Positions 584 to 42,865 of a stretch of DNA of 43,372 bases are shown here, piece after piece (position 1 is the stretch's first letter; the number at the start of each line of letters is the position of its first letter). The position numbers and the translations under genes are program-made. The stretch lies in the sequence record NC_073321.1; one strand, given 5' to 3'. Source of the stretch: Escherichia phage ZCEC5. Under the pieces are notes generated by a model that was given only the letters and a program-made list of their open reading frames with translations, was not told where the DNA came from and did no database searches.

Positions 584-604
584 TCTATTTTCTGCAATGA
601 CTAG

Positions 605-633
605 TTGACTATTATCCTCGACCCTACTATATT
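605..633 (+). promoter_or_regulatory. Sigma70-like promoter TTGACT-17-TATATT for the small-gene array
   Basis: -35 TTGACT at 605-610, 17-bp spacer, -10 TATATT at 628-633; about 33 bp upstream of first small ORF. Confidence 0.45.
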
Positions 634-3535: not shown

Positions 3536-4796
3536 TATCACGGCAACGGAACCGCAAGGCGCGTTTCTCGGTATGCACTGCAAGTTCCCTGCCTTCGTAG
3601 CGGGATTTGGCACTGGCAAATCCGAAGTCATGTGCAACTCTGCACTACTCGATAGCATGGAAGGTGGTAGCGATTCTATCATCGCCATGTATGAGCCAAC
3701 ATACGACCTTGTGCGTCTTATCCTTGCGCCGCGTATGGAAGAAAAACTCACCGACTGGGGTGTGAGGTACAAATACAACAAGTCCGACAACATAATCTAT
3801 ACATCATCCGGACAATTCGGTGATTTTGTTCTGCGTACACTAGATAATCCAGCACGAATCGTTGGTTACGAATCGTTTCGCGCAAAAATCGACGAGTTGG
3901 ACACCCTTAACATGGAACACGCTGAGCACGCGTGGAACAAAGTCATCGCCCGTAACCGCCAGTTACCGCGGACATATAAACCTATTACACCTAAACCGGC
4001 TAATACCGTTTCCGTGTTCACTACGCCGGAGGGATTCCGTTTCGTACATGACCGATGGGTGGTCAAAAAGAACCCTGGTTACGAGATGATTCAGGCATCC
4101 ACCCTGTCTAACCCGTTCCTGCCAGAAGATTATGTGCAGTCATTGCGTGACACCTATCCGGGTCAGTTGATCGACGCCTACATCAACGGCGAATTTGTCA
4201 ACCTAACGGCGGGAACCGTCTACTACGCTTACGACCGCAGGAAAAACAGCAGCCGCGAAACAATCAAGCCCGGCGAGACTCTGTATATCGGGCAGGACTT
4301 TAACGTAGGTCACATGGCGAGCACAGTTTACGTGCAACGGGGTAAAGTCTGGCATGCCGTTGCCGAGTTGGTTGATATGTTCGACACCCCGGATGTAGTG
4401 CGGGCCATAACTGAGCGATGGAAAAGTAAGGGCCACTATATCGTTATGTACCCGGACGCCAGCGGCAAAAACCGTAAAAGCAACAACGCCAGTACCTCTG
4501 ACATCGCCCAATTACAGCAGGCCGGGTTCGAAGTGCGTGCAAAATCGACAAACCCACCGGTTAAAGACCGCGTATCGGCGATGAATAAGGCGCTTGAATC
4601 TGGTATGGTCATGATTAACGAACAGGCTTGCCCGGTTACTGCTCGATGCCTGGAGCAACAGGCCTACGACAAGAACGGCGAACCGGATAAATCAGGTGGT
4701 GTGGACCACCAGAATGATGGAACCACATATCCTATCGCGTATGAAATGCCGATTCGCAAACCAGTAATCAACGTCCCGGTGACTTTCGCACTTTAA
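3525..4796 (+). CDS. Terminase large subunit
   Basis: 423 aa; Walker A-like GFGTGKS near N-terminus; GTG start with RBS AAGGTGG; gene order terS-terL-portal. Confidence 0.85.
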   Translation: MNVNITATEPQGAFLGMHCKFPAFVAGFGTGKSEVMCNSALLDSMEGGSDSIIAMYEPTYDLVRLILAPRMEEKLTDWGVRYKYNKSDNIIYTSSGQFGDFVLRTLDNPARIVGYESFRAKIDELDTLNMEHAEHAWNKVIARNRQLPRTYKPITPKPANTVSVFTTPEGFRFVHDRWVVKKNPGYEMIQASTLSNPFLPEDYVQSLRDTYPGQLIDAYINGEFVNLTAGTVYYAYDRRKNSSRETIKPGETLYIGQDFNVGHMASTVYVQRGKVWHAVAELVDMFDTPDVVRAITERWKSKGHYIVMYPDASGKNRKSNNASTSDIAQLQQAGFEVRAKSTNPPVKDRVSAMNKALESGMVMINEQACPVTARCLEQQAYDKNGEPDKSGGVDHQNDGTTYPIAYEMPIRKPVINVPVTFAL

Positions 4797-5074: not shown

Positions 5075-6550
5075 ATGTTAACTATGAACGGTCAGAATCA
5101 GGGTGTTAAGACAAAACACCGGGAATGGCTGCATCACTTCGATAAATGGCAGAAGGTACGCCACGCACTGGAAGGCGACCTTATTCGCTATCTGCGCAAT
5201 GTCGGGAAGAACGAACCCGACCCGACCTACGCTGCACAGCGCCAGGAAGAATATGAGAACGGCGCTATCTGCTACAACTTCACTAAACGTACCCTGGCTG
5301 GAATGGTGGGGTCGGTAATGCGCAAAGACCCTGAGCAAATTATCCCGCCTGAAATGGAGTACCTGCTACGTAACGCCGACGGTTCCGGTGTCGGGCTGTG
5401 GCAGCACGCGCAGGACACTTTGATGGAGATTGACTCGGTGGGCCGTGGCGGGTTGCTGGTTGACGCCCCGGAGACAGCTGCGGCAACGGCGGCAGAGCAG
5501 AACGCGGGATTATTAAACCCGGTCATCGCATTCTACACCGCAGAGAACATTATCAACTGGCGCCTGACCCGCATCGGTTCAGTTAACCGTGTGACGATGA
5601 TTGTATTGCGTGAGGTGTGGGAATACTCGGAACCGGGCGCAGAGTTCGAAACAAAATTCGGTGAGCAATACCGCGTTCTCGATTTGATTGACGGGCGCTA
5701 CCGCCAGCGCATTTACCGCTTCGATGCCGAAGGTGGTGCTCAGGATGACGTAATCGAAATCTTCCCGGAACTTGGCGAACAGTTACGCGGCAAAATCCCG
5801 TTCACGTTCATCGGGGCAAGCAACAACGACGCAACCATTGACGACGCGCCTCTACTGCCGTTAGCTGAGCTTAATATCGGACATTTCCGCAACAGTGCGG
5901 ACAACGAGGAGTCCAGTTTTGTTGTAGGGCAGCCTACTCTGTTTATCGCCCCCGGCGAGAACATGAGCATGGAACAGTGGAAAGAGGCTAACCCCCACGG
6001 CGTCCGCATGGGGTCGCGTTCAGGCCATAACATTGGTTACGGCGGCAATGCGTTTCTGGTCCAGGCGGGGGAGAACAACCTCGCCAAACAGAACATGCTG
6101 GATAAAGAAAATCAGGCTATCCAGATTGGTGCGCAGCTTATCACCCCGACGCAGCAAATCACCGCTGAATCAGCACGCCTGCAACGCGGTGCTGATACGT
6201 CTGTTATGGCGACAATCGCGCGTAACGTAAGCATGGCGTACACTGATGCGTTGCGCTGGGTAGCTGCAATGCTAGGGCTACGCGAAGACACAGATATTGA
6301 GTTCAAGCTGAATATGGAGTTCTTCCTGCAACCGATGTCCGCTCAGGACCGTGCACAGTGGATGGCGGATATTAATGCAGGCTTGTTACCGGCTACCGCT
6401 TACTATGCTGCGTTGCGTAAGGCCGGGGTAACCGACTGGACAGATGAGGATATCCAGAACGCTATCGAGGATACACCGCTGCCGGTTTTTACACAGACTA
6501 CCGGGGAAATTACGGCTACAGCACAGCATGATGAAGAGGCGCAGCAATGA
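5075..6550 (+). CDS. Portal protein (putative)
   Basis: 491 aa, position after terL, size typical of portal; RBS AAGAGGA. Confidence 0.7.
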   Translation: MLTMNGQNQGVKTKHREWLHHFDKWQKVRHALEGDLIRYLRNVGKNEPDPTYAAQRQEEYENGAICYNFTKRTLAGMVGSVMRKDPEQIIPPEMEYLLRNADGSGVGLWQHAQDTLMEIDSVGRGGLLVDAPETAAATAAEQNAGLLNPVIAFYTAENIINWRLTRIGSVNRVTMIVLREVWEYSEPGAEFETKFGEQYRVLDLIDGRYRQRIYRFDAEGGAQDDVIEIFPELGEQLRGKIPFTFIGASNNDATIDDAPLLPLAELNIGHFRNSADNEESSFVVGQPTLFIAPGENMSMEQWKEANPHGVRMGSRSGHNIGYGGNAFLVQAGENNLAKQNMLDKENQAIQIGAQLITPTQQITAESARLQRGADTSVMATIARNVSMAYTDALRWVAAMLGLREDTDIEFKLNMEFFLQPMSAQDRAQWMADINAGLLPATAYYAALRKAGVTDWTDEDIQNAIEDTPLPVFTQTTGEITATAQHDEEAQQ

Positions 6551-8066: not shown

Positions 8067-8093
8067 AAGGCCCCGTTAAGGGGCCTTAGTTTT
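8067..8093. terminator. Bidirectional intrinsic terminator
   Basis: AAGGCCCC-GTTAA-GGGGCCTT flanked by A-run and T-run; sits between convergent genes. Confidence 0.6.
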
Positions 8094-8316
8094 AAACTTC
8101 CACGTCTATTACCAAATCATCTGGTACGGTTATTACTATTTTATCGTTTTCATAGAATGGGTTAAGAGGCTCATTTTCAGGCTGCAGACGTAAAGTTATC
8201 TTTTTACCGCCAAGATAATTTATGTAACGAACCCAGTACCATTGGTCAAATACTTCCACCTTATCACCTGGGCATACGTCCGAGGCCTTCTTCTGATTCA
8301 TATATCTTACTGGCAT
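8092..8316 (-). CDS. Hypothetical protein (74 aa), opposite-strand accessory gene
   Basis: Perfect RBS AGGAGG, own promoter, terminated by the bidirectional hairpin. Confidence 0.55.
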   Translation of the reverse strand: MPVRYMNQKKASDVCPGDKVEVFDQWYWVRYINYLGGKKITLRLQPENEPLNPFYENDKIVITVPDDLVIDVEV

Positions 8317-8342
8317 ACATACCTCCTGTCTAAGTTAACTGA

Positions 8343-8371
8343 ATAGTAGCCTATTATGCTGGGGTGCGCAA
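8343..8371 (-). promoter_or_regulatory. Class B promoter TTGCGC-17-TACTAT containing palindrome AATAGGCTACTATT
   Basis: Near-identical copies at 16926-16954 (-), 39509-39537 (+) and 40677-40705 (+). Confidence 0.5.
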
Positions 8372-8423: not shown

Positions 8424-8439
8424 AACTATTCGAATAGTT
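8424..8439. promoter_or_regulatory. Perfect 16-bp palindrome AACTATTCGAATAGTT (operator-like)
   Basis: Overlaps -35 of the 8438 promoter; half-sites are the same CTATT/AATAG pentamers as the promoter palindromes, inverted. Confidence 0.45.
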
Positions 8440-8466
8440 GACTTTTCACTGAAAATGTGCTAAGCT
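8438..8466 (+). promoter_or_regulatory. Sigma70-like promoter TTGACT-17-TAAGCT with TG extension
   Basis: -35 TTGACT 8438-8443; TGc immediately upstream of -10 TAAGCT 8461-8466. Confidence 0.45.
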
Positions 8467-8472
8467 CCACCT

Positions 8473-8675
8473 GAGCTTGTGAAGTATGAACAAGCGACCG
8501 CGGCGCGGGCAGGTAACGGAGCGGGACGTAAGTCCTGAGTGTAGTTACGCTGACGCGTTCGGAAGGGCCACACTCTATTTCTTGTGTAAAAAGTAACTGG
8601 TTTACTGAGATTACGCCGTTTCTATGTTTAAATGATAAGGACTAGCGCCCCGCTTTAAGGCGGGGCTTTACTTAT
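8473..8675 (+). ncRNA. Candidate ~200-nt leader transcript / small RNA
   Basis: Noncoding GC-rich stretch between promoter 8438 and terminator 8644; contains only a weak 36-codon ORF (8486-8596). Confidence 0.25.
8644..8675 (+). terminator. Intrinsic terminator directly upstream of spanin genes
   Basis: Stem GCCCCGC / GCGGGGC (7 bp) followed by TTTACTTAT. Confidence 0.5.
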
Positions 8676-8690
8676 CGAGAAAGGAGAAAC

Positions 8691-15114: not shown

Positions 15115-15140
15115 AAGGCCCCGAAAGGGGCCTTTTTCTT
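15115..15140. terminator. Bidirectional intrinsic terminator
   Basis: AAGGCCCC-GAAA-GGGGCCTT followed by T5 on + and T4 on -. Confidence 0.6.
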
Positions 15141-15315
15141 ACTCACTTTTGAATGGCATTTCATAGAAGTTAGTTAACTGGCCTCGGTCACTTCGTTCTG
15201 TCGTTTCTTTTGAGGCCTCTTCCTTACTACCTACGGCGTAAATATCAACCCACTCATCCCATTCTTCGTCATATACGCGGATTACATATATTGTTTTCAT
15301 AATATTTTCACTCAT
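15139..15315 (-). CDS. Hypothetical small protein (about 58 aa)
   Basis: ORF-track 15139..15357 frame; ATG 15315 with RBS AGGAG. Confidence 0.4.
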   Translation of the reverse strand: MSENIMKTIYVIRVYDEEWDEWVDIYAVGSKEEASKETTERSDRGQLTNFYEMPFKSE

Positions 15316-15538
15316 CAATATTACTCCTGTACTCCCGTAACTTCTCCAGACTTTCAATTGCTTCTGCTAAGTCGGTTCCGGAGTCTTTGTGACCGCGCAG
15401 ACCCATACACAGCAGTTTCTTTAACGCATGCTGTAGCGCCGGGTCACGGATATCGAAGGCGCGTAGCACATCATAGACGTCTACTGTCATGGTGCTGCCG
15501 TGGGTGTTTGTCATTGTGCGGTTGTATTTTGAAGTCAT
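15308..15538 (-). CDS. Hypothetical protein (76 aa)
   Basis: ATGA-coupled to upstream metallophosphoesterase gene. Confidence 0.45.
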   Translation of the reverse strand: MTSKYNRTMTNTHGSTMTVDVYDVLRAFDIRDPALQHALKKLLCMGLRGHKDSGTDLAEAIESLEKLREYRSNIDE

Positions 15539-16665
15539 CCCAGCATCTCCGGTGAAATAGTTAAACGTGCGACCTCGCCATATTCGGCGCTATAAGTAAT
15601 CACATTTGCGCTACGGCCTGACATCCATCCGCCTCTGGATGCGTAGGCGTCTTTGGCCGCTAAGGTGCGGTGTTGCTCAACAATCATATTACGGCTTTCT
15701 ACAATCTTCTGGTGGTGCAGGTGGCCTACGTGGGCGTAGCTGTAAACACTCTCGCCGAACGCTTTGCGGAACTTAGCAATCATAACCGGTTCGATAGCAT
15801 CGAATCGTGCTTTATGCCCGTGGTGAAAGAACAATGTCGTTTTGCCGTGCTGCACCATCTTATAAACATCCGGCGATGTATCCACGGTAACTCGGCTGTC
15901 TTTTGAGTATAAAGTCGTGAACATTTCAGCCAGCCATACGGAGCCGACAGGGTCGTGATTTCCTTGCACGATAAGCAAGCGAACATTTTTGTGCTTAACG
16001 AGGGCCATATCGACAACACGGCGGACCATACGAATCATGTAGCGGACCAGTTTCTGGTAGCGGGTATCCGCATCCAACACATGGCGCGACTCCGGCGTAA
16101 CGGCATCAAGACTATCAAAGTGCGCGAAGTCCCCCAGCAGGTTAATAACTCCTGTTCCTGCATCTGGTGCTTTCTGAAACGCAGCATCGAACCACCGAGA
16201 GAACAGGTCTTCCGCAATCTTCATATCCCAGTCGTCGCCGCTCTCGTCCGCCCACGCCAGCATACCGAGATGAAAATCAGATACCGTGTAAAGATTGAGT
16301 AGCTTGTCGTCGCGTTTAGCGCGGGCGGCTTTAACAGGCGCAACGGGGGTAATCTCTGACTTCATGCCTTCAACCACGGCTTTCATCAACTCAATCTGCC
16401 GTTCGGCATCGGTGTCGGTCTTAACCCATTGCAACTTAGTGTTGCCAAACTCGTCCACCAGGGACGACGTTCCTTTAATTTTGTAGCCGTCCGGCACAAG
16501 GTGGCTAACGTCGCGCCCGTGGCCTACGCCTTTCTTAGCTAGCTTCGCTTTACGAATACGAATAACGCGGTCGGAGATGCCGTATTTACGGGCGATATCG
16601 ATAATTTTTGTTCCGGCGTTCAATTCTTCCTGTAGCTGTTCGTCGGTTATTTTCTTCTGGGCCAT
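15535..16665 (-). CDS. HTH-domain protein fused to Mre11/SbcD-like calcineurin-type metallophosphoesterase
   Basis: Motifs I-V in order: YTVSDFHLG, LLGDFAHFD, VQGNHD, FHHGH, VGHLHH; N-terminal helix-turn-helix-like region (IIDIARKYGISDRVIRIRK); RBS GAGGAAG. Confidence 0.7.
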   Translation of the reverse strand: MAQKKITDEQLQEELNAGTKIIDIARKYGISDRVIRIRKAKLAKKGVGHGRDVSHLVPDGYKIKGTSSLVDEFGNTKLQWVKTDTDAERQIELMKAVVEGMKSEITPVAPVKAARAKRDDKLLNLYTVSDFHLGMLAWADESGDDWDMKIAEDLFSRWFDAAFQKAPDAGTGVINLLGDFAHFDSLDAVTPESRHVLDADTRYQKLVRYMIRMVRRVVDMALVKHKNVRLLIVQGNHDPVGSVWLAEMFTTLYSKDSRVTVDTSPDVYKMVQHGKTTLFFHHGHKARFDAIEPVMIAKFRKAFGESVYSYAHVGHLHHQKIVESRNMIVEQHRTLAAKDAYASRGGWMSGRSANVITYSAEYGEVARLTISPEMLG

Positions 16666-16703
16666 GCTTACTTCCTCGTGTTTAGGATTTGTCCTATACT
16701 AGC

Positions 16704-16910
16704 TCACTTCTCGTTAACATTCGAGTTGCACGCCCAGATTAAAATAAATACCCACGGCAGCAGAACCCAACCAAGAAACAGGTTAGCCATGAATATAGCT
16801 AACTTCGCTTTATGGTTACGGAAGTACGCAACCAGGAAAGGTGCGAAATAAGCGAGCAGTGCAAACAGAATTAAGGAAACTGGTAAACTGGACATTTTAA
16901 ACCCCTTCAT
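16704..16910 (-). CDS. Superinfection immunity (Imm-like) membrane protein
   Basis: Two TM helices with pattern YFAPFLVAYFRNHKAKLAIFMANLFLGWVLLPWVFILIWA, recalled to match the T4 Imm-like family; start possibly at 16895 (RBS AAGGGG). Confidence 0.55.
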   Translation of the reverse strand: MKGFKMSSLPVSLILFALLAYFAPFLVAYFRNHKAKLAIFMANLFLGWVLLPWVFILIWACNSNVNEK

Positions 16911-16925
16911 TGTTGGTGTGAGTGA

Positions 16926-16954
16926 ATAGTACCCTATTATATTGGGGTGCGCAA
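16926..16954 (-). promoter_or_regulatory. Class B promoter TTGCGC-17-TACTAT driving the Imm/metallophosphoesterase island
   Basis: Shares 30/33 positions with the promoter at 8339-8371. Confidence 0.5.
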
Positions 16955-26051: not shown

Positions 26052-26078
26052 AAGGCCCCCACGGGGCCTTATTTATTT
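26052..26078. terminator. Bidirectional intrinsic terminator between convergent operons
   Basis: AAGGCCCC-CAC-GGGGCCTT followed by ATTTATTTT. Confidence 0.6.
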
Positions 26079-28062: not shown

Positions 28063-28950
28063 TTAAGCGGCTACTTGCGGGACGATGGCATTGCCATAAC
28101 CGCGCAATCGTCCCACTCTGGCGGGTATCCCATTAGCCAGCGGGAATGTGCCGGGTTCAACTGGCCGGAATTTTCCATCCCGGCAGCCGAGCCAGTCAGC
28201 ATCTGACCAGAAGCCGTTATGCGTATTGGCTCCACGAGGTAGCATTGATTGTGAAGATTGTTCGGGTCTCTTTTTGTTTCCGCCTCGCTGTAACTTCCGT
28301 GACGCGAATTCTGAACCGTCGGTGTCCCCCATGCCGCTTTCAGCCCCTGTTCCGTTGAGTAGTCCAGTCTGTCGAATGTTCTGTCCTTCCCATCCTTGCG
28401 AATCACTGTCTCCCCGCTCCCTTTGTAATCGTTCGCTGTCGGTGTCGGCCAATTCGTGCGCACCAAAGAAGAGTCGTTCTCTTTTGTGCGGAGCGCCGAC
28501 GCTACAAGCTGGGAGTACGGCAAACCCGACGGCGTAGTCTTCTCCTTCCAGGTGAGCTTGTAAATCGCACATCCACGATTTTGCAATTGCTGGTGCAACC
28601 TGTTCCCCAAAGAGGACTGGAGGGCGGCACTCGCTGATGAGGTCGAGGAAAACTGGCGCAAGGTGTCTCGGGTCGAACTGTCCGAGTTGTTTTCCTGCCG
28701 CGCTAAACGGTTGGCAAGGCGGGCTTCCCGTCCAGAGAGGCGTATCTTCCGAAACTCCCGCAAGTCTGAGCGCGAGAGGCCAGCCGCCGATACCAGCGAA
28801 AAAATGACACTGGGTGAACCCGTCGAGGTCTTCTGGCTTAACTTCGGTAATGCTTCTTTCATCTACAACTCCAAAAGGTATGTGGCCCTGTTTTATTAAT
28901 TCACGCAGCCACGCGGCTGCGCCTTTATCCCATTCGTTGTAATAGTTCAT
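28063..28950 (-). CDS. DNA (cytosine-5)-methyltransferase, orphan
   Basis: Motif I FAGIGG, motif IV SPPCQPFS, ENV-like GEQV, HKRER, C-terminal GNAIVPQVA; no adjacent restriction enzyme. Confidence 0.8.
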   Translation of the reverse strand: MNYYNEWDKGAAAWLRELIKQGHIPFGVVDERSITEVKPEDLDGFTQCHFFAGIGGWPLALRLAGVSEDTPLWTGSPPCQPFSAAGKQLGQFDPRHLAPVFLDLISECRPPVLFGEQVAPAIAKSWMCDLQAHLEGEDYAVGFAVLPACSVGAPHKRERLFFGAHELADTDSERLQRERGDSDSQGWEGQNIRQTGLLNGTGAESGMGDTDGSEFASRKLQRGGNKKRPEQSSQSMLPRGANTHNGFWSDADWLGCRDGKFRPVEPGTFPLANGIPARVGRLRGYGNAIVPQVAA

Positions 28951-29138
28951 TTCGCCACCAGAACTAACTCTTTACGCCCGAACGCCGTAACGTTACCCGT
29001 TACATCTTCGATAACCAGTTTACCGTTCGACTCGACGAACACTGTATCAACGGCAACAGGACGACGGGTCTTAACGTTGAAAATCATATCGCCTGGTACG
29101 ATGTCACGTGCTGGTTTGCGGTCATATTCGTGTTTCAT
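28947..29138 (-). CDS. Hypothetical protein (63 aa)
   Basis: First gene downstream of class A promoter 29171-29199. Confidence 0.5.
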   Translation of the reverse strand: MKHEYDRKPARDIVPGDMIFNVKTRRPVAVDTVFVESNGKLVIEDVTGNVTAFGRKELVLVAK

Positions 29139-29149
29139 TTCTCAATTCC

Positions 29150-29455
29150 TTATATTGTTGGTGTATGACTACTATAATAGTTCGCTATTAGGTCGTCAAC
29201 CTGTTTAAACGAACCAACGACAAAAACATTCGCGCCGCGTTTACGCATACGCTCGTGCTCACGTAACTGGTGCGGGTCTGGCTTCGTGTTTTCGTCTTTC
29301 TTAACCTCGACGAACCAGACGATGCCGCCGGGGAGAATTACCAGCAGGTCAGGAGCGCCCACTCTATTTTCGTACGACAATTTGCGTACAAGGCCCCCCA
29401 TGGCCTCAAATCGCTCTTTTGCGTATTTCTGAACAACTCCTTCTTTAGTTGCCAT
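29150..29455 (-). CDS. VRR-NUC domain nuclease
   Basis: GAPDLLV...VEVKK...Q...G..VFVV signature of the VRR-NUC PD-(D/E)xK fold; ATG 29455 chosen to avoid overlap with HNH gene. Confidence 0.7.
   Translation of the reverse strand: MATKEGVVQKYAKERFEAMGGLVRKLSYENRVGAPDLLVILPGGIVWFVEVKKDENTKPDPHQLREHERMRKRGANVFVVGSFKQVDDLIANYYSSHTPTI
29171..29199 (-). promoter_or_regulatory. Class A promoter TTGACG-17-TATAGT with palindrome AATAGCGAACTATT in spacer
   Basis: Same architecture as promoters at 33083-33111 and 35913-35941. Confidence 0.5.
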
Positions 29456-32397: not shown

Positions 32398-33024
32398 TTA
32401 ACGGCGGCGACGTTCGCGGCGTGGTGCTTCGTCTTCTTCGTTGTCTTCAAGGTCATCGACGCTCGCAGCAACTTTAGAACCCCCGAACGCTTTACCTTCA
32501 CCAACGTATTTAATCGCCAGCAGGTTAACACCGAGGACTTTATATTTCTGGCTAAACCAGATTTCGACGCTTACGTTAGCTACGCAGCCGCTGTAAACCT
32601 GTTCGCCTTCGATCTGTTCACCGTCTACATTGAAGTCCTGTTCTACCTGAGTCTCACCTTTTTTAGAGGTTACAATCAGTGGCTGTTTCTGCGCTTTCGC
32701 TTTGAAGTAGAAGCCTTCCGGGAAGTCTTCAAACGGATTGTCGCGCTCGGCAATGTCTTTAATCGCGCATTTATCCATGTGCTTACCTTCGCCGTAGTTG
32801 GACTTCATCCACTTCTCGGCGGCGGCTGCGCCTAACGCTTCTTCAATTACAGCGTAAACGGTGTCATAGAGCGCATCGATTTGAGCATGGTCAGACGGCA
32901 GGATAATAGTAGCGCTGTACTGACCTTTAGTGATTGAGCCATCGTCGTTTTCACGGTCTTTTTCGCGTTCGAATACGTTAACCCAGGCAGTGTTTACTTT
33001 ACGCAGATTTAATTTCAGTCCCAT
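32398..33024 (-). CDS. DUF2815-like protein (putative phage ssDNA-binding protein)
   Basis: Highly acidic/basic C-terminal tail, position between DUF2800 nuclease and polymerase as in PolA-type phage replication modules. Confidence 0.55.
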   Translation of the reverse strand: MGLKLNLRKVNTAWVNVFEREKDRENDDGSITKGQYSATIILPSDHAQIDALYDTVYAVIEEALGAAAAEKWMKSNYGEGKHMDKCAIKDIAERDNPFEDFPEGFYFKAKAQKQPLIVTSKKGETQVEQDFNVDGEQIEGEQVYSGCVANVSVEIWFSQKYKVLGVNLLAIKYVGEGKAFGGSKVAASVDDLEDNEEDEAPRRERRRR

Positions 33025-33082: not shown

Positions 33083-33111
33083 ACTATAATAGCTAACTAT
33101 TCATGTGTCAA
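33083..33111 (-). promoter_or_regulatory. Class A promoter TTGACA-17-TATAGT with palindrome AATAGTTAGCTATT
   Basis: Consensus -35, 17-bp spacer carrying the palindrome. Confidence 0.55.
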
Positions 33112-35344: not shown

Positions 35345-35881
35345 TTATTCTTCTTCGAAATACTTGTTCTTGATTGCCGTCAGGCGTTCCAGGTATTTGG
35401 CCAGGTCTTCGTCTTTAATCGCGGCAATCTTCATTTTCTTACCGGTGAACTCTTCCAGCAGTTCATCGGAGTCATCGCACGCGGCATCGCTCGGACCTTC
35501 GTTAATCGCATCGTCGATAGCCTGAATCTGATCGCGAAGAGACTTATAATCAACCTCTTCTTTCTCTTCTTCCGGCTCTGGCGTAGGTTCCTCTACTTTA
35601 GCTTTACGCGGCTTGCGTTTCGGCTTCTCTTCTTCTGTCGGTTTAGTGTCAACGACGTCTTCACCTTCGACCGGGATTTCTTTCTCTATCGCCTTTCTCA
35701 CCGCGAGTCCCGCTTGAAATTCGTCCTCCATGATGTCATCAAGTTCTTTTGTTGCTTCTTTTGCAACAGTAGTCTCGATTGTTGCGGTTTCAGAAACGAC
35801 AACCTGTTTTGCACTATTCGCGGCAATCAGTTCATGTGCAACTACGAAACGTTCCAGTAATTTTAAGAATTGGTCTAACAT
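35345..35881 (-). CDS. Highly acidic early protein (178 aa)
   Basis: First gene after class A promoter 35913-35941; very rich in E/D; RBS GAGGAG. Confidence 0.6.
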   Translation of the reverse strand: MLDQFLKLLERFVVAHELIAANSAKQVVVSETATIETTVAKEATKELDDIMEDEFQAGLAVRKAIEKEIPVEGEDVVDTKPTEEEKPKRKPRKAKVEEPTPEPEEEKEEVDYKSLRDQIQAIDDAINEGPSDAACDDSDELLEEFTGKKMKIAAIKDEDLAKYLERLTAIKNKYFEEE

Positions 35882-35912: not shown

Positions 35913-35941
35913 ACTATAATAGCGAACTATTCACGTGTCAA
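35913..35941 (-). promoter_or_regulatory. Class A promoter TTGACA-17-TATAGT with palindrome AATAGCGAACTATT
   Basis: Divergent from the Cro-like gene promoter. Confidence 0.55.
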
Positions 35942-35945
35942 TGGG

Positions 35946-35975
35946 CTTTTCTGAAATAATTAATATGGTACTATT
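35946..35975 (+). promoter_or_regulatory. Candidate promoter/operator for the Cro-like gene
   Basis: -10 TACTAT at 35969-35974 inside imperfect palindrome AATATGGTACTATT; weak -35. Confidence 0.35.
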
Positions 35976-36005: not shown

Positions 36006-36221
36006 ATGCAACCATCTGAACTAGGCATCCGTGTAGAACAACGCCGTAAAGAACTCGGCATCTCCCAGCGCCGTCTGGCTGTCCTGACCGGAGTTTCCCA
36101 GGGCGCGATTAACCAGCTTGCGCTCGGAGTAACTCAGGACGTCCGCCCGGCGACGCTGTTTAAACTGGCGGAAGTGCTTGAAGTAGACGCCAAGTGGCTG
36201 GCGTTAGGTGAAGGGGCTTAA
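36006..36221 (+). CDS. HTH XRE-family (Cro/C1-type) transcriptional regulator
   Basis: 71 aa; LGISQRRLAVLTGVSQGAINQL helix-turn-helix; strong RBS AAGGAG. Confidence 0.75.
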   Translation: MQPSELGIRVEQRRKELGISQRRLAVLTGVSQGAINQLALGVTQDVRPATLFKLAEVLEVDAKWLALGEGA

Positions 36222-38537: not shown

Positions 38538-38771
38538 TTATTCCAGGTCTTCTAAAGTAGCGGTCATTCCGCGAACTTCAGCAACAGCACTATATTTCCC
38601 GCCAACATTTTTCACGACACCAGATTTAACCAGCACTTTCAACGACCCTTCAATAATGGCTGAACTATAGTACTTAAAATAACTACGGCGCAAGTCGATA
38701 ACGCTGCACGACCCTTTTTTACGTGTTAACGAAACTACCGCCGTAAATACGCGTGACTGGAACTCGGTCAT
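38538..38771 (-). CDS. Hypothetical protein (77 aa) with C-terminal TLEDLE tail
   Basis: ATGA-coupled; C-terminus resembles those of the primase and DUF2800 proteins. Confidence 0.45.
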   Translation of the reverse strand: MTEFQSRVFTAVVSLTRKKGSCSVIDLRRSYFKYYSSAIIEGSLKVLVKSGVVKNVGGKYSAVAEVRGMTATLEDLE

Positions 38772-38938
38772 TTAACGTTCTCCTTAATCCACGCTTCCAC
38801 TTTCTCCGGGTCAAACGTACCAGGCTGCCGGCGGCCCATAATGCGGATACAACAATCTGGGAACTTCCCGCTCTTTAACCAGTTATTCAGTGTGCGACGA
38901 GTAACCCCGATACGCTCGGCTACCTCATTCTGCGTCAT
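38768..38938 (-). CDS. Small HTH DNA-binding protein (AlpA/excisionase-like)
   Basis: MTQNEVAERIGVTRRTLNNWLKSGKFP; ATG 38938 with RBS AAGGAG (ORF-track frame 38768..39016). Confidence 0.5.
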   Translation of the reverse strand: MTQNEVAERIGVTRRTLNNWLKSGKFPDCCIRIMGRRQPGTFDPEKVEAWIKENVK

Positions 38939-39077
38939 CTTTAATCTCCTTAATTGTTTCCCATGCGAACGCTGTAGCTGTGCCGTATTTATTAGGGCAG
39001 TATCTGCTCTCGCCATGTCCGTTAAACCACGCTTCTATCAGCAACTCTTTCAACTGTTCTTCTGTCAAAGTAACCAT
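38925..39077 (-). CDS. Hypothetical small protein (50 aa), first gene of leftward early operon
   Basis: ATG 39077 with RBS GAGGG; the ORF-track TTG start at 39110 overlaps the -10 hexamer. Confidence 0.4.
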   Translation of the reverse strand: MVTLTEEQLKELLIEAWFNGHGESRYCPNKYGTATAFAWETIKEIKDDAE

Positions 39078-39109
39078 TCTCAAACCCTCATTATCAGTTA
39101 ACGGAGACA

Positions 39110-39138
39110 AGTATACATTGCGAATAATGGGAAATCAA
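39110..39138 (-). promoter_or_regulatory. Leftward early promoter TTGATT-17-TATACT
   Basis: -10 TATACT at 39115-39110, -35 TTGATT at 39138-39133. Confidence 0.45.
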
Positions 39139-39153
39139 ACATAATCGCACCTA

Positions 39154-39182
39154 TTGACATTATGAAAATCTTCGTTTAAGGT
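39154..39182 (+). promoter_or_regulatory. Rightward candidate promoter TTGACA-17-TAAGGT
   Basis: Consensus -35; -10 similar to the 8461 hexamer; divergent from the leftward promoter. Confidence 0.3.
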
Positions 39183-39188
39183 GCTTCT

Positions 39189-39443
39189 ATATCTTAGTTA
39201 CTTTGATTCCTGTTCACCTTGTAAGAATGTTTAACCCGTGCGTCAAGCAAAGGGTTAAACACAGGCTTACTGAACATAAGAATTATAGTAACTTTCCTTC
39301 CTTAGTATCTCCAGTTGCCATGGGCAAGCTCTATTCTCATCGGCAGCATATCTCTTAAGTATCTGATTTTCTTAATGTGCCGTAGATTCGCAACCGTAAA
39401 AATGTAACGATTATTGGGCAGGCTTAAGGCCTGCCCTTTAGTT
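39189..39443 (+). ncRNA. Candidate ~250-nt noncoding RNA in the divergent control region
   Basis: No ORF; contains 9-bp perfect inverted repeat GTTTAACCC-N14-GGGTTAAAC (39229-39260); ends at an intrinsic terminator. Confidence 0.2.
39416..39443 (+). terminator. Intrinsic terminator in noncoding region
   Basis: GGGCAGGC-TTAAG-GCCTGCCC followed by TTTAGTT. Confidence 0.5.
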
Positions 39444-39508
39444 ACCAAGTAATAAGAATAAAGGCACAACCTTCCCTAAAGAATCACAACGGCAACGTAA
39501 CTAATCCC

Positions 39509-39537
39509 TTGCACACCCCAACATAATAGGATACTAT
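39509..39537 (+). promoter_or_regulatory. Class B promoter TTGCAC-17-TACTAT with palindrome AATAGGATACTATT
   Basis: CTTGCACACCCCAACATAATAGGATACTATTCA, near-identical to the 8339 and 16923 promoters. Confidence 0.55.
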
Positions 39538-39571
39538 TCACTTATCGAAACGAGACAGAGGAGTGAGAGTT

Positions 39572-40018
39572 ATGTTTAAGAAGGGTCAGTTGGTGAAAAC
39601 GAAACGCAGCGGACAATACGTATTAGTGTTGCGGGATGAGAACGAGCACGACAAGGATAATATAGTCGCCATATGGAGTCTGGTAAGAAAGAAAAATGGG
39701 TATACCTCACGTGATAATCTGAAACTCATCGGCAACAATTTTAAATTCAAAGGGGGCGGAGTGATGGAAGAATTAATTTGTATTGAATCCAGCCAGGATG
39801 TGCAGGATTGGTTTGTGAAAGGTAACAAATATTCGTCCGGAGTATATTACAACGGCCGTCGATATGTTTTAGACGAAGACGGTGATGAATGGGATTTAAA
39901 TGACGATGTAAGAGAAACTTTAACCGTTAGCAGGGTCAATGCTGTTTCTGCCTCATTCACAACGGCATCGAAACATGATGCTCGCGCCGCCGACTCTGAG
40001 GGAGGTTGCCGTGAATAA
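39572..40018 (+). CDS. Hypothetical protein (148 aa)
   Basis: RBS GAGGAG; first gene after class B promoter. Confidence 0.55.
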   Translation: MFKKGQLVKTKRSGQYVLVLRDENEHDKDNIVAIWSLVRKKNGYTSRDNLKLIGNNFKFKGGGVMEELICIESSQDVQDWFVKGNKYSSGVYYNGRRYVLDEDGDEWDLNDDVRETLTVSRVNAVSASFTTASKHDARAADSEGGCRE

Positions 40019-40381: not shown

Positions 40382-40404
40382 TTTGGGATTTTACTGAGTG
40401 ACTT

Positions 40405-40440
40405 ACGCTGCTACACAGCAGCGTATCATTTTTCTCATTT
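40405..40440 (+). terminator. Intrinsic terminator
   Basis: ACGCTGCT-ACAC-AGCAGCGT followed by ATCATTTTTCTCATTTTT. Confidence 0.6.
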
Positions 40441-40676: not shown

Positions 40677-40705
40677 TTGCACACTAAGATAGAATAGGCT
40701 ACTAT
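40677..40705 (+). promoter_or_regulatory. Class B promoter TTGCAC-17-TACTAT with palindrome AATAGGCTACTATT
   Basis: Palindrome identical to the reverse complement of the 8342-8355 copy. Confidence 0.55.
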
Positions 40706-40736
40706 TCATTTACACAAACGAGAGGAGAGACAGAAG

Positions 40737-40856
40737 ATGTATAAGTATCTGACGGTAGAACAACTGGAACAGATTTACGCTGAGTTGCGAGTTTGTTGCG
40801 TATGCACCGGCGACTACAAACTTGTTTACGGCGAACTGGAGGCGGAAGATGAGTGA
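40737..40856 (+). CDS. Hypothetical small Cys-containing protein (39 aa)
   Basis: RBS GAGGAGAG; CCVC motif. Confidence 0.35.
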   Translation: MYKYLTVEQLEQIYAELRVCCVCTGDYKLVYGELEAEDE

Positions 40857-42291: not shown

Positions 42292-42600
42292 TTGGATAAA
42301 TTTACTGAAACAGTGACAGGCTGGCTCCTCGCCGCCGCACTAGCCGGTGGGGTAATCGGACTACGACAACATAAGTCCGCTATTTCCGGCCCTATCGACG
42401 GATTCTGCTTTATTGCAACCGGCTTCACCTGCGCCGTATTTGGTGCGCCTCTCGCGGCTCAATGGTTCGATATTACTGGTGAGCGTGAAATCGCTGGTCT
42501 GGGATTCATCATCGCTATTCTCTGGATGCCTATTTATTCCCGCCTCTCCGGTATCGTCTCTGGAGAATACATCGCTCGTCGAGGAGGCACAGATGAATGA
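42292..42600 (+). CDS. Holin candidate (class I-like, 3 TM segments)
   Basis: 102 aa, three hydrophobic helices, charged C-terminus; TTG start; adjacent to endolysin across the window junction. Confidence 0.5.
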   Translation: MDKFTETVTGWLLAAALAGGVIGLRQHKSAISGPIDGFCFIATGFTCAVFGAPLAAQWFDITGEREIAGLGFIIAILWMPIYSRLSGIVSGEYIARRGGTDE

Positions 42601-42865
42601 GTTATTCTGGTTCGGTGGTATGCTGGCAATCGGGGGCACATCGCTGTTTAATGTGTATCATCCCAGCGTGGACGACGGATTATTTGGCCGGGTGCTCTAT
42701 ATCCTGACTGCCATCGTCTGTGCCGCCGGATGTATCCACCTGTTACAGGGCAGCATGTCACCTACGTTGCCTGAGACATTAATCACATTAGTTGCGCTGC
42801 GCCAGATTCGCCAGGCGTGGCTATCATACGGAGGACATAAGCGTGTCTCGAAACATTTCAGATAA
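42593..42865 (+). CDS. Second small membrane protein of lysis cassette (holin/antiholin candidate, 2 TM)
   Basis: 90 aa; RBS GAGGAGG; ATGA-coupled; basic C-terminus. Confidence 0.4.
   Translation: MNELFWFGGMLAIGGTSLFNVYHPSVDDGLFGRVLYILTAIVCAAGCIHLLQGSMSPTLPETLITLVALRQIRQAWLSYGGHKRVSKHFR

Follow-up and report, generated by a model that had tools for sequence, protein, structure and literature searches.

Units made of a promoter, a gene and a terminator, inserted between conserved genes of lambdoid phages, were reportedly described as 'morons' by Juhala and colleagues in 2000, and in the classic morons each unit has its own unrelated promoter. Phage 434 Cro and repressor have 14-bp operators (ACAA-N6-TTGT) that overlap PR, PRM and PL. 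The PeSL cassettes of the T4-type phages RB49 and phi1 have consensus promoters and a stable G/C-rich hairpin inverted repeat that terminates transcription (Arbiol et al. 2010, PMC2839356). The core motif of the locus analysed here is itself already in two genome papers. Seven PHIRE 'predicted conserved promoter sequences', among them TAATAGGGTACTATTCATTA, are given for VB_EcoS-Golestan (PMC7203180, Suppl. Table S4), and seven PHIRE copies labelled 'Phage RNAP promoter', with consensus tgAATAGTa-ccTATTat-T, are given for fBC-Eco01 (PMC9825357, Suppl. Table S2). Both sets are the same sequence element as the one described below, with seven sites per genome at equivalent positions. In both phages a site lies before the Cro-like gene, and PP4 of fBC-Eco01 is a promoter of the type that we find at 29176. 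The two papers provide bare 20-mer lists, without experiments, dyad symmetry, sigma70 hexamers, two registers or cargo turnover. Our feature is a well-resolved instance of element types already known, its underlying repeat has been published before, and the concepts of promoter with operator, morons and PeSL-like shuffling are themselves established.

The window, by which we mean the whole stretch of 43,372 nucleotides from Escherichia phage ZCEC5 (NC_073321.1), was placed by megablast in the Kagunavirus group of Guernseyvirinae siphophages. It has about 90% identity to K1G, K1ind and Ro145c2YLVW, with hundreds of Salmonella Jerseyviruses as more distant relatives. Kagunaviruses and Jerseyviruses have been sequenced by the hundreds and several were proposed for therapy or biocontrol. 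The annotated genomes used for comparison were Shashou, SETP7 (a Jerseyvirus), and FSL SP-031 and TS6 (both Cornellvirus-type). Their maps are standard and an RNA polymerase gene is annotated in none of the four, which suggests that all transcription is performed by host polymerase. Our literature search found transcription-start or protein-binding data for no Guernseyvirinae phage, and likewise no Kagunavirus or Jerseyvirus transcriptomes. By BLAST, cassette matches were found in 206 phage records with Guernseyvirinae-type hosts throughout (Escherichia, Salmonella, Raoultella, Klebsiella, Shigella), usually at two or three places per Kagunavirus.

The first-pass annotation of the window had described a promoter-like cassette of about 33 bp that is repeated four times with few substitutions, and this description holds. 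The exact 33-mer was located at 8339-8371 on the minus strand. The degenerate consensus TTGCRCACNNNNNNANAATAGGNTACTATTCA has exactly four matches with zero mismatches, at 8340-8371 (minus), 16923-16954 (minus), 39509-39540 (plus) and 40677-40708 (plus), and it was matched in 0 of 100 dinucleotide-preserving shuffles. The four copies, with the site class of each, are as follows.

8339..8371, minus strand: cassette copy 1 (class A), with -35 TTGCGC 8371-8366, -10 TACTAT 8348-8343, palindrome 8342-8355 and predicted +1 8336.
16923..16954, minus strand: cassette copy 2 (class B), with -35 16954-16949, -10 16931-16926, palindrome 16925-16938 and predicted +1 16919.
39509..39540, plus strand: cassette copy 3 (class C), with -35 39509-39514, -10 39532-39537, palindrome 39525-39538 and predicted +1 39544.
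40677..40708, plus strand: cassette copy 4 (class D), with -35 40677-40682, -10 40700-40705, palindrome 40693-40706 and predicted +1 40712.

The core shared by the four copies is TTGCRCAC-N6-ANAATAGGNTACTATTCA. Copies 1-3 differ at 3-5 positions, and copy 4 diverges in the -35-proximal half of the spacer, where it has ACTAAGATAG instead of ACCCCARYAT. All four have a -35 TTGCRC, a 17-nt spacer, a -10 TACTAT and, 7 nt beyond the -10, an A as predicted +1. Each copy lies upstream of an ATG that is preceded by a Shine-Dalgarno sequence (SD), in the same orientation and 27-34 nt on, and A/T-rich tracts are found upstream of the cassettes. Against the sigma70 consensus, TTGCRC matches at 3/6 positions and TACTAT at 4/6 (with A-11 and T-7), which gives 7/12 for every copy; a consensus scan with a cut-off of 9/12 misses the cassette promoters. 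Judged by these hexamers, the cassette reads as a moderate or weak sigma70-type promoter. The units behind the cassettes begin after terminators or in divergent regions. Since copies 1 and 2 head minus-strand units within the plus-strand head and tail modules, these units would need a promoter of their own.

We also considered other readings of the same letters. An alternative -10 at cassette positions 14-19 (CATAAT, TATAAT or TAGAAT) was rejected because it has no conserved -35 at proper distance, copy 2 excepted. In copy 2 the scan finds ATCACA-N17-TATAAT, so a second promoter is possible at this copy alone. Direct reading of the opposite strand of the cassettes gave no consistent -35 for a divergent promoter. 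Folding of the cassettes is weak (MFE between -2.3 and -6.5 kcal/mol; three of the four copies have a z-score near 0), and we rejected a hairpin or terminator reading on this ground. An Rfam scan of the whole window gave no family at gathering score.

Scanning IMG/VR with the core motif returned at least 120 loci, a sample biased by its selection on the motif. Among the matches listed, five syntenic site classes (A, A', B, C and D) can be told apart by their upstream flank. The promoter-like layout is kept in these relatives: among the matches listed, all 127 unique copies have an SD and ATG 22-64 nt past the -10 (mostly 27-34), and the predicted +1 is an A in 112 of the 127.

The spacer had been said to be more conserved than a generic promoter needs, and we could trace this surplus to a 14-bp dyad, AATAG-N4-CTATT (extended form TAATAG-N4-CTATTC). 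There are seven exact and three one-mismatch sites in the window, compared to 1.2 expected. AATAG is by far the commonest arm of 5-N4-5 palindromes, with 7 copies in the window, 8 in Shashou and 5 in SETP7. The conserved 3' half of the cassette recurs, whole or in part, at 29176, 33088, 35918, 35962, 600 and 8433, as can be seen in the following list of predicted promoters and sites.

35913..35941, minus strand: TTGACA-N17-TATAGT promoter with palindrome AATAGCGAACTATT (35918-35931) in its spacer; it would drive 35345-35881.
33083..33111, minus strand: TTGACA-N17-TATAGT promoter with a palindrome (33088-33101) in its spacer; it would drive 32398-33024, a homologue of ssDNA-binding protein.
29171..29199, minus strand: TTGACG-N17-TATAGT promoter with a palindrome (29176-29189) in its spacer; it would drive the 63-aa ORF 28947-29138.
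35962..35975, plus strand: degenerate palindrome AATATGGTACTATT (one mismatch) over the putative -10 TACTAT of the Cro-like gene.
600..633, plus strand: TTGACT-N17-TATATT promoter downstream of the endolysin terminator, its -35 within the centre of the one-mismatch palindrome ACTAGTTGACTATT (600-613).
8426..8446, plus strand: 16-bp perfect palindrome AACTATTCGAATAGTT, then the one-mismatch site AATAGTTGACTTTT; the centre of this site provides the -35, TTGACT, for a rightward promoter that diverges from copy 1.

Nine of the ten dyad sites are intergenic and the tenth (29176) lies within the last 50 nt of the VRR-NUC ORF, while all ten overlap -35, spacer or -10 elements. The position of the dyad relative to the predicted start is not the same everywhere. 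In the cassettes it spans -19 to -6, across the -10, and in the three TTGACR-N17-TATAGT replication promoters (29199, 33111 and 35941, minus strand), which are the three strongest consensus promoters of the genome, it spans -25 to -12 in the spacer. Relative to transcription, the extended motif TGAATAG...CTATTAT faces opposite ways in the cassettes and in the TTGACR class. The differing register and opposite orientation suggest that the dyad itself is not a directional promoter element and not part of a hexamer. The sites at 35962 and 35918 have their centres 44 bp apart. At 8426-8441 the palindrome AACTATTCGAATAGTT has the same half-sites in reverse order (CTATT-CG-AATAG), directly adjoins the 8433 site and recurs, conserved, in class A flanks of related phages.

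Conservation of the arms could be followed in sequences that had not been selected by the motif. For the 35918 site we used 36 unique Kagunavirus sequences picked by protein match; both arms are invariant in them, three of the four centre positions vary, and so do 2-3 spacer bases between the dyad and the -35. When cassettes were retrieved by anchors, every class A', B and C sequence had zero arm mismatches, and an arm mismatch occurred in just one class A and two class D cassette-bearing sequences. The flanks of the Kagunavirus dyad are asymmetric (ATAATAG vs TGAATAG). Syntenic promoters of SETP7 also have the dyad, in some cases in a further register. The dyad is absent from the FSL SP-031 and TS6 genomes. 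Looking de novo in FSL SP-031 for an operator that might stand in for the dyad, we found no 11-mer common to three or more intergenic regions; TATTA-N6-TAATA occurs there three times, too few for interpretation.

We believe, with a probability of roughly 0.6, that the cassette is a sigma70 promoter with an embedded operator dyad which is shared with nearly all promoters of the phage. The operator reading follows from the conserved arms, the variable centre and the overlap with core promoter elements at several promoters. The whole would be a promoter and 5'-UTR cassette of about 80 nt, common to the subfamily and read by host sigma70 RNA polymerase, with an A/T-rich upstream tract, -35 TTGCRC, 17-nt spacer, -10 TACTAT, +1 A, a short UTR and an SD as its parts. 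The dyad would serve as operator for one phage-encoded dimeric HTH protein that co-regulates nearly all phage promoters, and the positions of the sites make occlusion, i.e., repression, the most likely mechanism. The repeats, the dyad with its positions, the conservation in relatives and the cargo turnover were observed; that the promoters are active, that a protein binds and in which direction it regulates is what we infer. The first-pass annotation had proposed, as one option, a regulatory class distinct from the TTGACA-type replication promoters. Since the TTGACR promoters carry the same palindrome, the cassettes are not a class apart from them, and the observation points to shared control instead; most likely, judging from the shared dyad, both kinds of promoter answer to one phage-encoded regulator. 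Degenerate dyads also occur at promoters before late-looking genes (600 and 8433), which complicates a simple early shut-off. For Kagunaviruses and Jerseyviruses, the preferred reading would offer a simple and testable regulatory map of about ten promoters, one operator and two candidate regulators.

The four copies could instead be recent duplicates or gene-conversion products of one sigma70 promoter, their spacer kept by descent and without any protein-binding role. Such paralogy would account for the non-palindromic spacer segment ACCCCAAYAT that copies 1-3 and classes A, A', B and C share, and it agrees with the shuffling of UTR types between site classes, which indicates sequence exchange among cassettes. 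However, the dyad is also found in non-homologous TTGACR promoters, in another register and opposite orientation, and its arms are invariant where adjacent spacer bases vary. It is kept in Jerseyvirus despite about 70% overall nucleotide identity, and copy 4 has the same dyad with a different -35-proximal spacer. We consider paralogy of the promoter alone to be rather unlikely.

The genes and terminators associated with the four copies of the window are as follows.

8092..8316, minus strand: copy-1 cargo, a 74-aa ORF of phrog_8705 (function not known), a single-gene unit inside the plus-strand head module.
8067..8087, bidirectional: terminator AAGGCCCC-N-GGGGCCTT, which closes the copy-1 unit.
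15308..16895, minus strand: copy-2 operon with Imm superinfection-immunity (16704-16895), Metallophos/DNA-repair exonuclease (15535-16665) and a 76-aa ORF (15308-15538).
39572-40018, plus strand: first ORF of copy 3, which heads a rightward block of small genes; terminator at 40404-40425.
40737-40856, plus strand: first ORF of copy 4, in the same rightward block as copy 3.

The copy-1 unit (promoter, gene and terminator) occupies 8067-8371, and the copy-2 operon ends at the terminator 15115-15134. A stem AAGGCCCC-N3-5-GGGGCCTT is present at all three convergent junctions (8067-8087, 15115-15134 and 26052-26070), and this terminator recurs at the equivalent junctions of Shashou and SETP7. The genes behind the cassettes had been regarded as non-essential-looking hypotheticals throughout, and here we have to disagree. 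Copy 2 heads the operon of Imm and the Metallophos exonuclease, the latter being 97% identical in Shashou and 86% in SETP7, and copy 4 is the nearest cassette upstream of the holin genes (42292-42865), is co-directional with them, and no plus-strand terminator is predicted between. Of the earlier interpretation, the promoter cassette, the over-conserved spacer and the location at accessory-gene boundaries stand, and the separate class and the all-hypothetical cargo do not.

Several minor observations concern the same regions. The first ORF of copy 3 has 148 aa here vs about 63 aa in most relatives; its N-terminus matches phrog_12538 and its C-terminus phrog_30617, so a fusion or a frameshifted read-through is possible. 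The divergent early operons are separated by about 470 bp of non-coding sequence (39102-39571), with a strong hairpin or terminator at 39416-39436, about 70 nt upstream of copy 3; this region might be an origin or a leader. On the plus strand, about 250 nt of non-coding sequence (8438-8690) run from a TTGACT / TGn-TAAGCT promoter-like site to a strong terminator (8647-8666), and the spanin gene comes directly after. SETP7 has parts of this stretch conserved (CGCRTTCGGAAGGGCC, for example) at 5740-5920, where its annotation shows tiny ORFs. The stretch matches no Rfam family and might be a small RNA or a leader.

A search of related genomes for the cassette at accessory-gene boundaries was fruitful, since the cargo varies and the same cargo is found behind different sites. 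The cassette with its 5'-UTR is a conserved island of about 80 nt across some 130 copies of relatives, among the matches listed. Anchored identity in these matches is about 0.9 across flank, cassette and UTR/SD; in classes A, A' and D of the matches listed it drops to random (about 0.3) at the start codon, and in classes C and D of the same matches the upstream side is random too. Homology breaks off at the start codon and not at the dyad, which is about 30-35 nt further upstream. The first ORFs of the 131 copies listed fall into at least 31 families. Among the matches listed, class A has at least 10 cargo families and class A' at least 8 to 9, with at least four found behind both; one N6/N4 DNA methylase is included and the rest are mostly ORFans. 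The idea of a portable module moved with accessory cargo hence gains real comparative support, within the matches listed.

Whole cassette units are present in some phages and absent from others, and a cassette at the 5' side and a terminator at the 3' side bracket the accessory slots. The window has site A and no A', Shashou has A' and no A, and SETP7 also has an A' unit; in some relatives the class A flank is joined straight to the terminator. In the proposed explanation, the cassette and the AAGGCCCC...GGGGCCTT terminator would together delimit slots with content that is replaced, gained or lost, and homologous recombination between these repeated boundaries would be enough for cargo replacement. 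The fixed slots A, A', B, C and D hold exchangeable accessory genes (Imm, DNA methylase, many ORFans); they can help in the discovery of anti-defence genes and offer natural insertion sites for engineering. The SETP7 A' unit, which has an amidase gene, does not use the family cassette; at 4005-4045 (minus strand) it has TTGACA and a different long palindrome, AATGGTATAT-ATAG-ATATACCATT, which suggests that this cargo came with its own regulated promoter.

The turnover of cargo raises the question of whether the palindrome or the whole cassette primarily mediates cassette exchange, in a PeSL-like or integron-like manner, with promoter activity being secondary. The conserved islands of about 80 nt between variable genes, the variety of cargo (at least 31 families, at least four of them behind both A and A', among the matches listed), the presence or absence of whole units between phages, and the shared terminator as second homology block could all be read in this way. 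Yet homology breaks at the start codon, some 30-35 nt past the dyad, the cassette hairpins are unstable (-2.3 to -6.5 kcal/mol), and conserved replication genes, which do not take part in any exchange, have the dyad at their promoters too. The analysis turned up no recombinase, and homologous recombination of the ordinary kind between repeats suffices. A primary role in recombination therefore appears unlikely.

Like PeSL cassettes, the present ones are small and repeated, combine a sigma70-type early promoter with an inverted repeat that overlaps the -35, spacer or -10, and lie directly upstream of ORFans in plastic regions and at the edges of insertions, deletions and replacements. In contrast to the consensus promoters of PeSL, the promoter here has 7/12 matches; the dyad has 5-bp A/T-rich arms with no stable fold in place of a stem-loop terminator, and termination falls to a separate, shared element at the opposite end of the unit. 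The phage family is also unrelated, ours being a siphovirus of 43 kb. The units resemble morons as well: copy 1, copy 2 and the A' unit found in relatives each belong to an autonomous unit of promoter, gene(s) and terminator, set on the minus strand within plus-strand head and tail modules, and the presence of these units varies among relatives. They differ from morons in sharing one family-wide promoter/operator cassette and one type of terminator. A wider and more tentative proposal, which we regard as possible and would not press, is a PeSL-like gene-cassette system in Guernseyvirinae. In it, a promoter/operator 'socket' and a terminator would bracket interchangeable genes, recombination would move the cargo within and between genomes, and one small HTH protein would, through one dyad, control almost every promoter of a strictly virulent phage.

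Two genes of the window are candidates for the protein that would bind the dyad under the operator reading.

36006..36221, plus strand: candidate 1, a 71-aa Cro/C1-type HTH protein (HTH_3, E=2e-12).
38768..38941, minus strand: candidate 2, an HTH_17/excisionase-family DNA-binding protein (56-aa core; ORF open to 39016).

The closest solved relatives of the HTH_3 protein are phage 434 Cro and repressor (E about 1e-5), and its gene adjoins two dyad sites (35918 and 35962), in what is the classic arrangement. The likeness to phage 434 extends to the sites, which are 14-bp operator-like dyads with conserved arms and a variable centre that overlap promoter elements, two of them flanking divergent promoters beside the Cro-like gene. 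However, there is no CI partner or lysogeny module here, the sites are scattered over the genome and not clustered like OR and OL, and the recognition helix of this candidate binder is not conserved between the genera that share the dyad. Between Kagunaviruses and Jerseyviruses the Cro-like proteins have just 49-51% identity, with recognition helices SQGAINQL vs SQSLITHL. The HTH_17 protein has 86-88% identity between the same genera, which share the dyad. Its gene is the first of a leftward operon, whose promoter (39138-39110) has no palindrome. FSL SP-031 and TS6 have neither the dyad nor HTH_17 and keep the Cro-like gene, and HTH_17 and the dyad occur together in the window, Shashou and SETP7, a pattern in which effectively one dyad-negative lineage is sampled; a Cro-like gene is present in all five. 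On these comparisons we lean, tentatively, toward HTH_17 over the Cro-like protein as the candidate binder.

The search for homologues of the Cro-like protein returned exclusively relatives with 77% identity or more, which gives no power for covariation, and in bacterial genomes the distant homologues, inspected for a nearby dyad, are generic XRE proteins without the motif. One hit, NZ_JACVEL010000022.1 ('Taishania pollutisoli' scaffold22, 18,987 bp, a Bacteroidota assembly), has a Jerseyvirus-type Cro-like gene with an upstream region that is nearly base-for-base Jerseyvirus, and the assembly was probably contaminated with phage DNA. The 63-aa protein encoded at 28947-29138 (minus strand, phrog_4879) is unusually conserved, with 98% identity in Shashou and 95% in SETP7, compared to about 50-90% among adjacent genes. 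Like the dyad and HTH_17, it is missing from FSL SP-031 and TS6. We do not favour it as the binder, being small, beta-rich in appearance and without a match to a DNA-binding family.

The dyad might also be the binding site of a host (enterobacterial) transcription factor that the phage exploits, since the motif is kept by phages infecting Escherichia, Salmonella, Raoultella and Klebsiella. No E. coli regulator is known to have an AATAG-N4-CTATT consensus, though, and the absence of the motif from the sister lineage FSL SP-031/TS6, which has the same host genus, fits a phage-encoded factor better. A host factor is quite improbable in our view.

About as improbable is a loading site for a promoter-embedded antiterminator in the style of Q/QBE or P. 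aeruginosa AlpA/ABE, by which intrinsic terminators would be read through. The dyad of the TTGACR promoters lies between -35 and -10 like QBE and ABE, the HTH_17 gene is annotated 'AlpA family' in relatives, and there are many terminator-like hairpins between co-directional genes. But the HTH_17 protein has 56-82 aa and no detectable similarity to solved antiterminators (best PDB E=0.05, to unrelated HTH proteins), whereas the C-terminal HTH of the P. aeruginosa AlpA contacts DNA through residues 128-142 and its N-terminal ring sits in the RNA exit channel, so that protein is much larger. ABE is moreover a 6-bp monomer site without a dyad, and the dyad of the cassettes overlaps the -10 itself. 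We rejected the antiterminator idea on protein size, absent similarity and site architecture.

The label 'Phage RNAP promoter' of fBC-Eco01, i.e., a promoter for a phage-encoded RNA polymerase, has in its favour the seven PHIRE copies in each of Golestan and fBC-Eco01, but it is hardly credible and an untenable mis-annotation, as such a gene is annotated in none of Shashou, SETP7, FSL SP-031 and TS6, the unassigned ORFs of the window are all too small to encode one, the motif points in opposite directions relative to the downstream gene in cassette and TTGACR promoters, and sigma70-type hexamers at canonical spacing flank it. The present analysis corrects this label in the literature.

A last observation concerns the region upstream of the Cro-like gene in the Salmonella phage Ijeoma (PQ139366.1). 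At 1532-1869 it has five tandem units of about 37 nt, TTAGTTGGTGATAAGAACTATAATCGTACTCTATTAT, and a duplicated block of the cro promoter; this amplification of promoter and operator may be either real or an assembly artefact.
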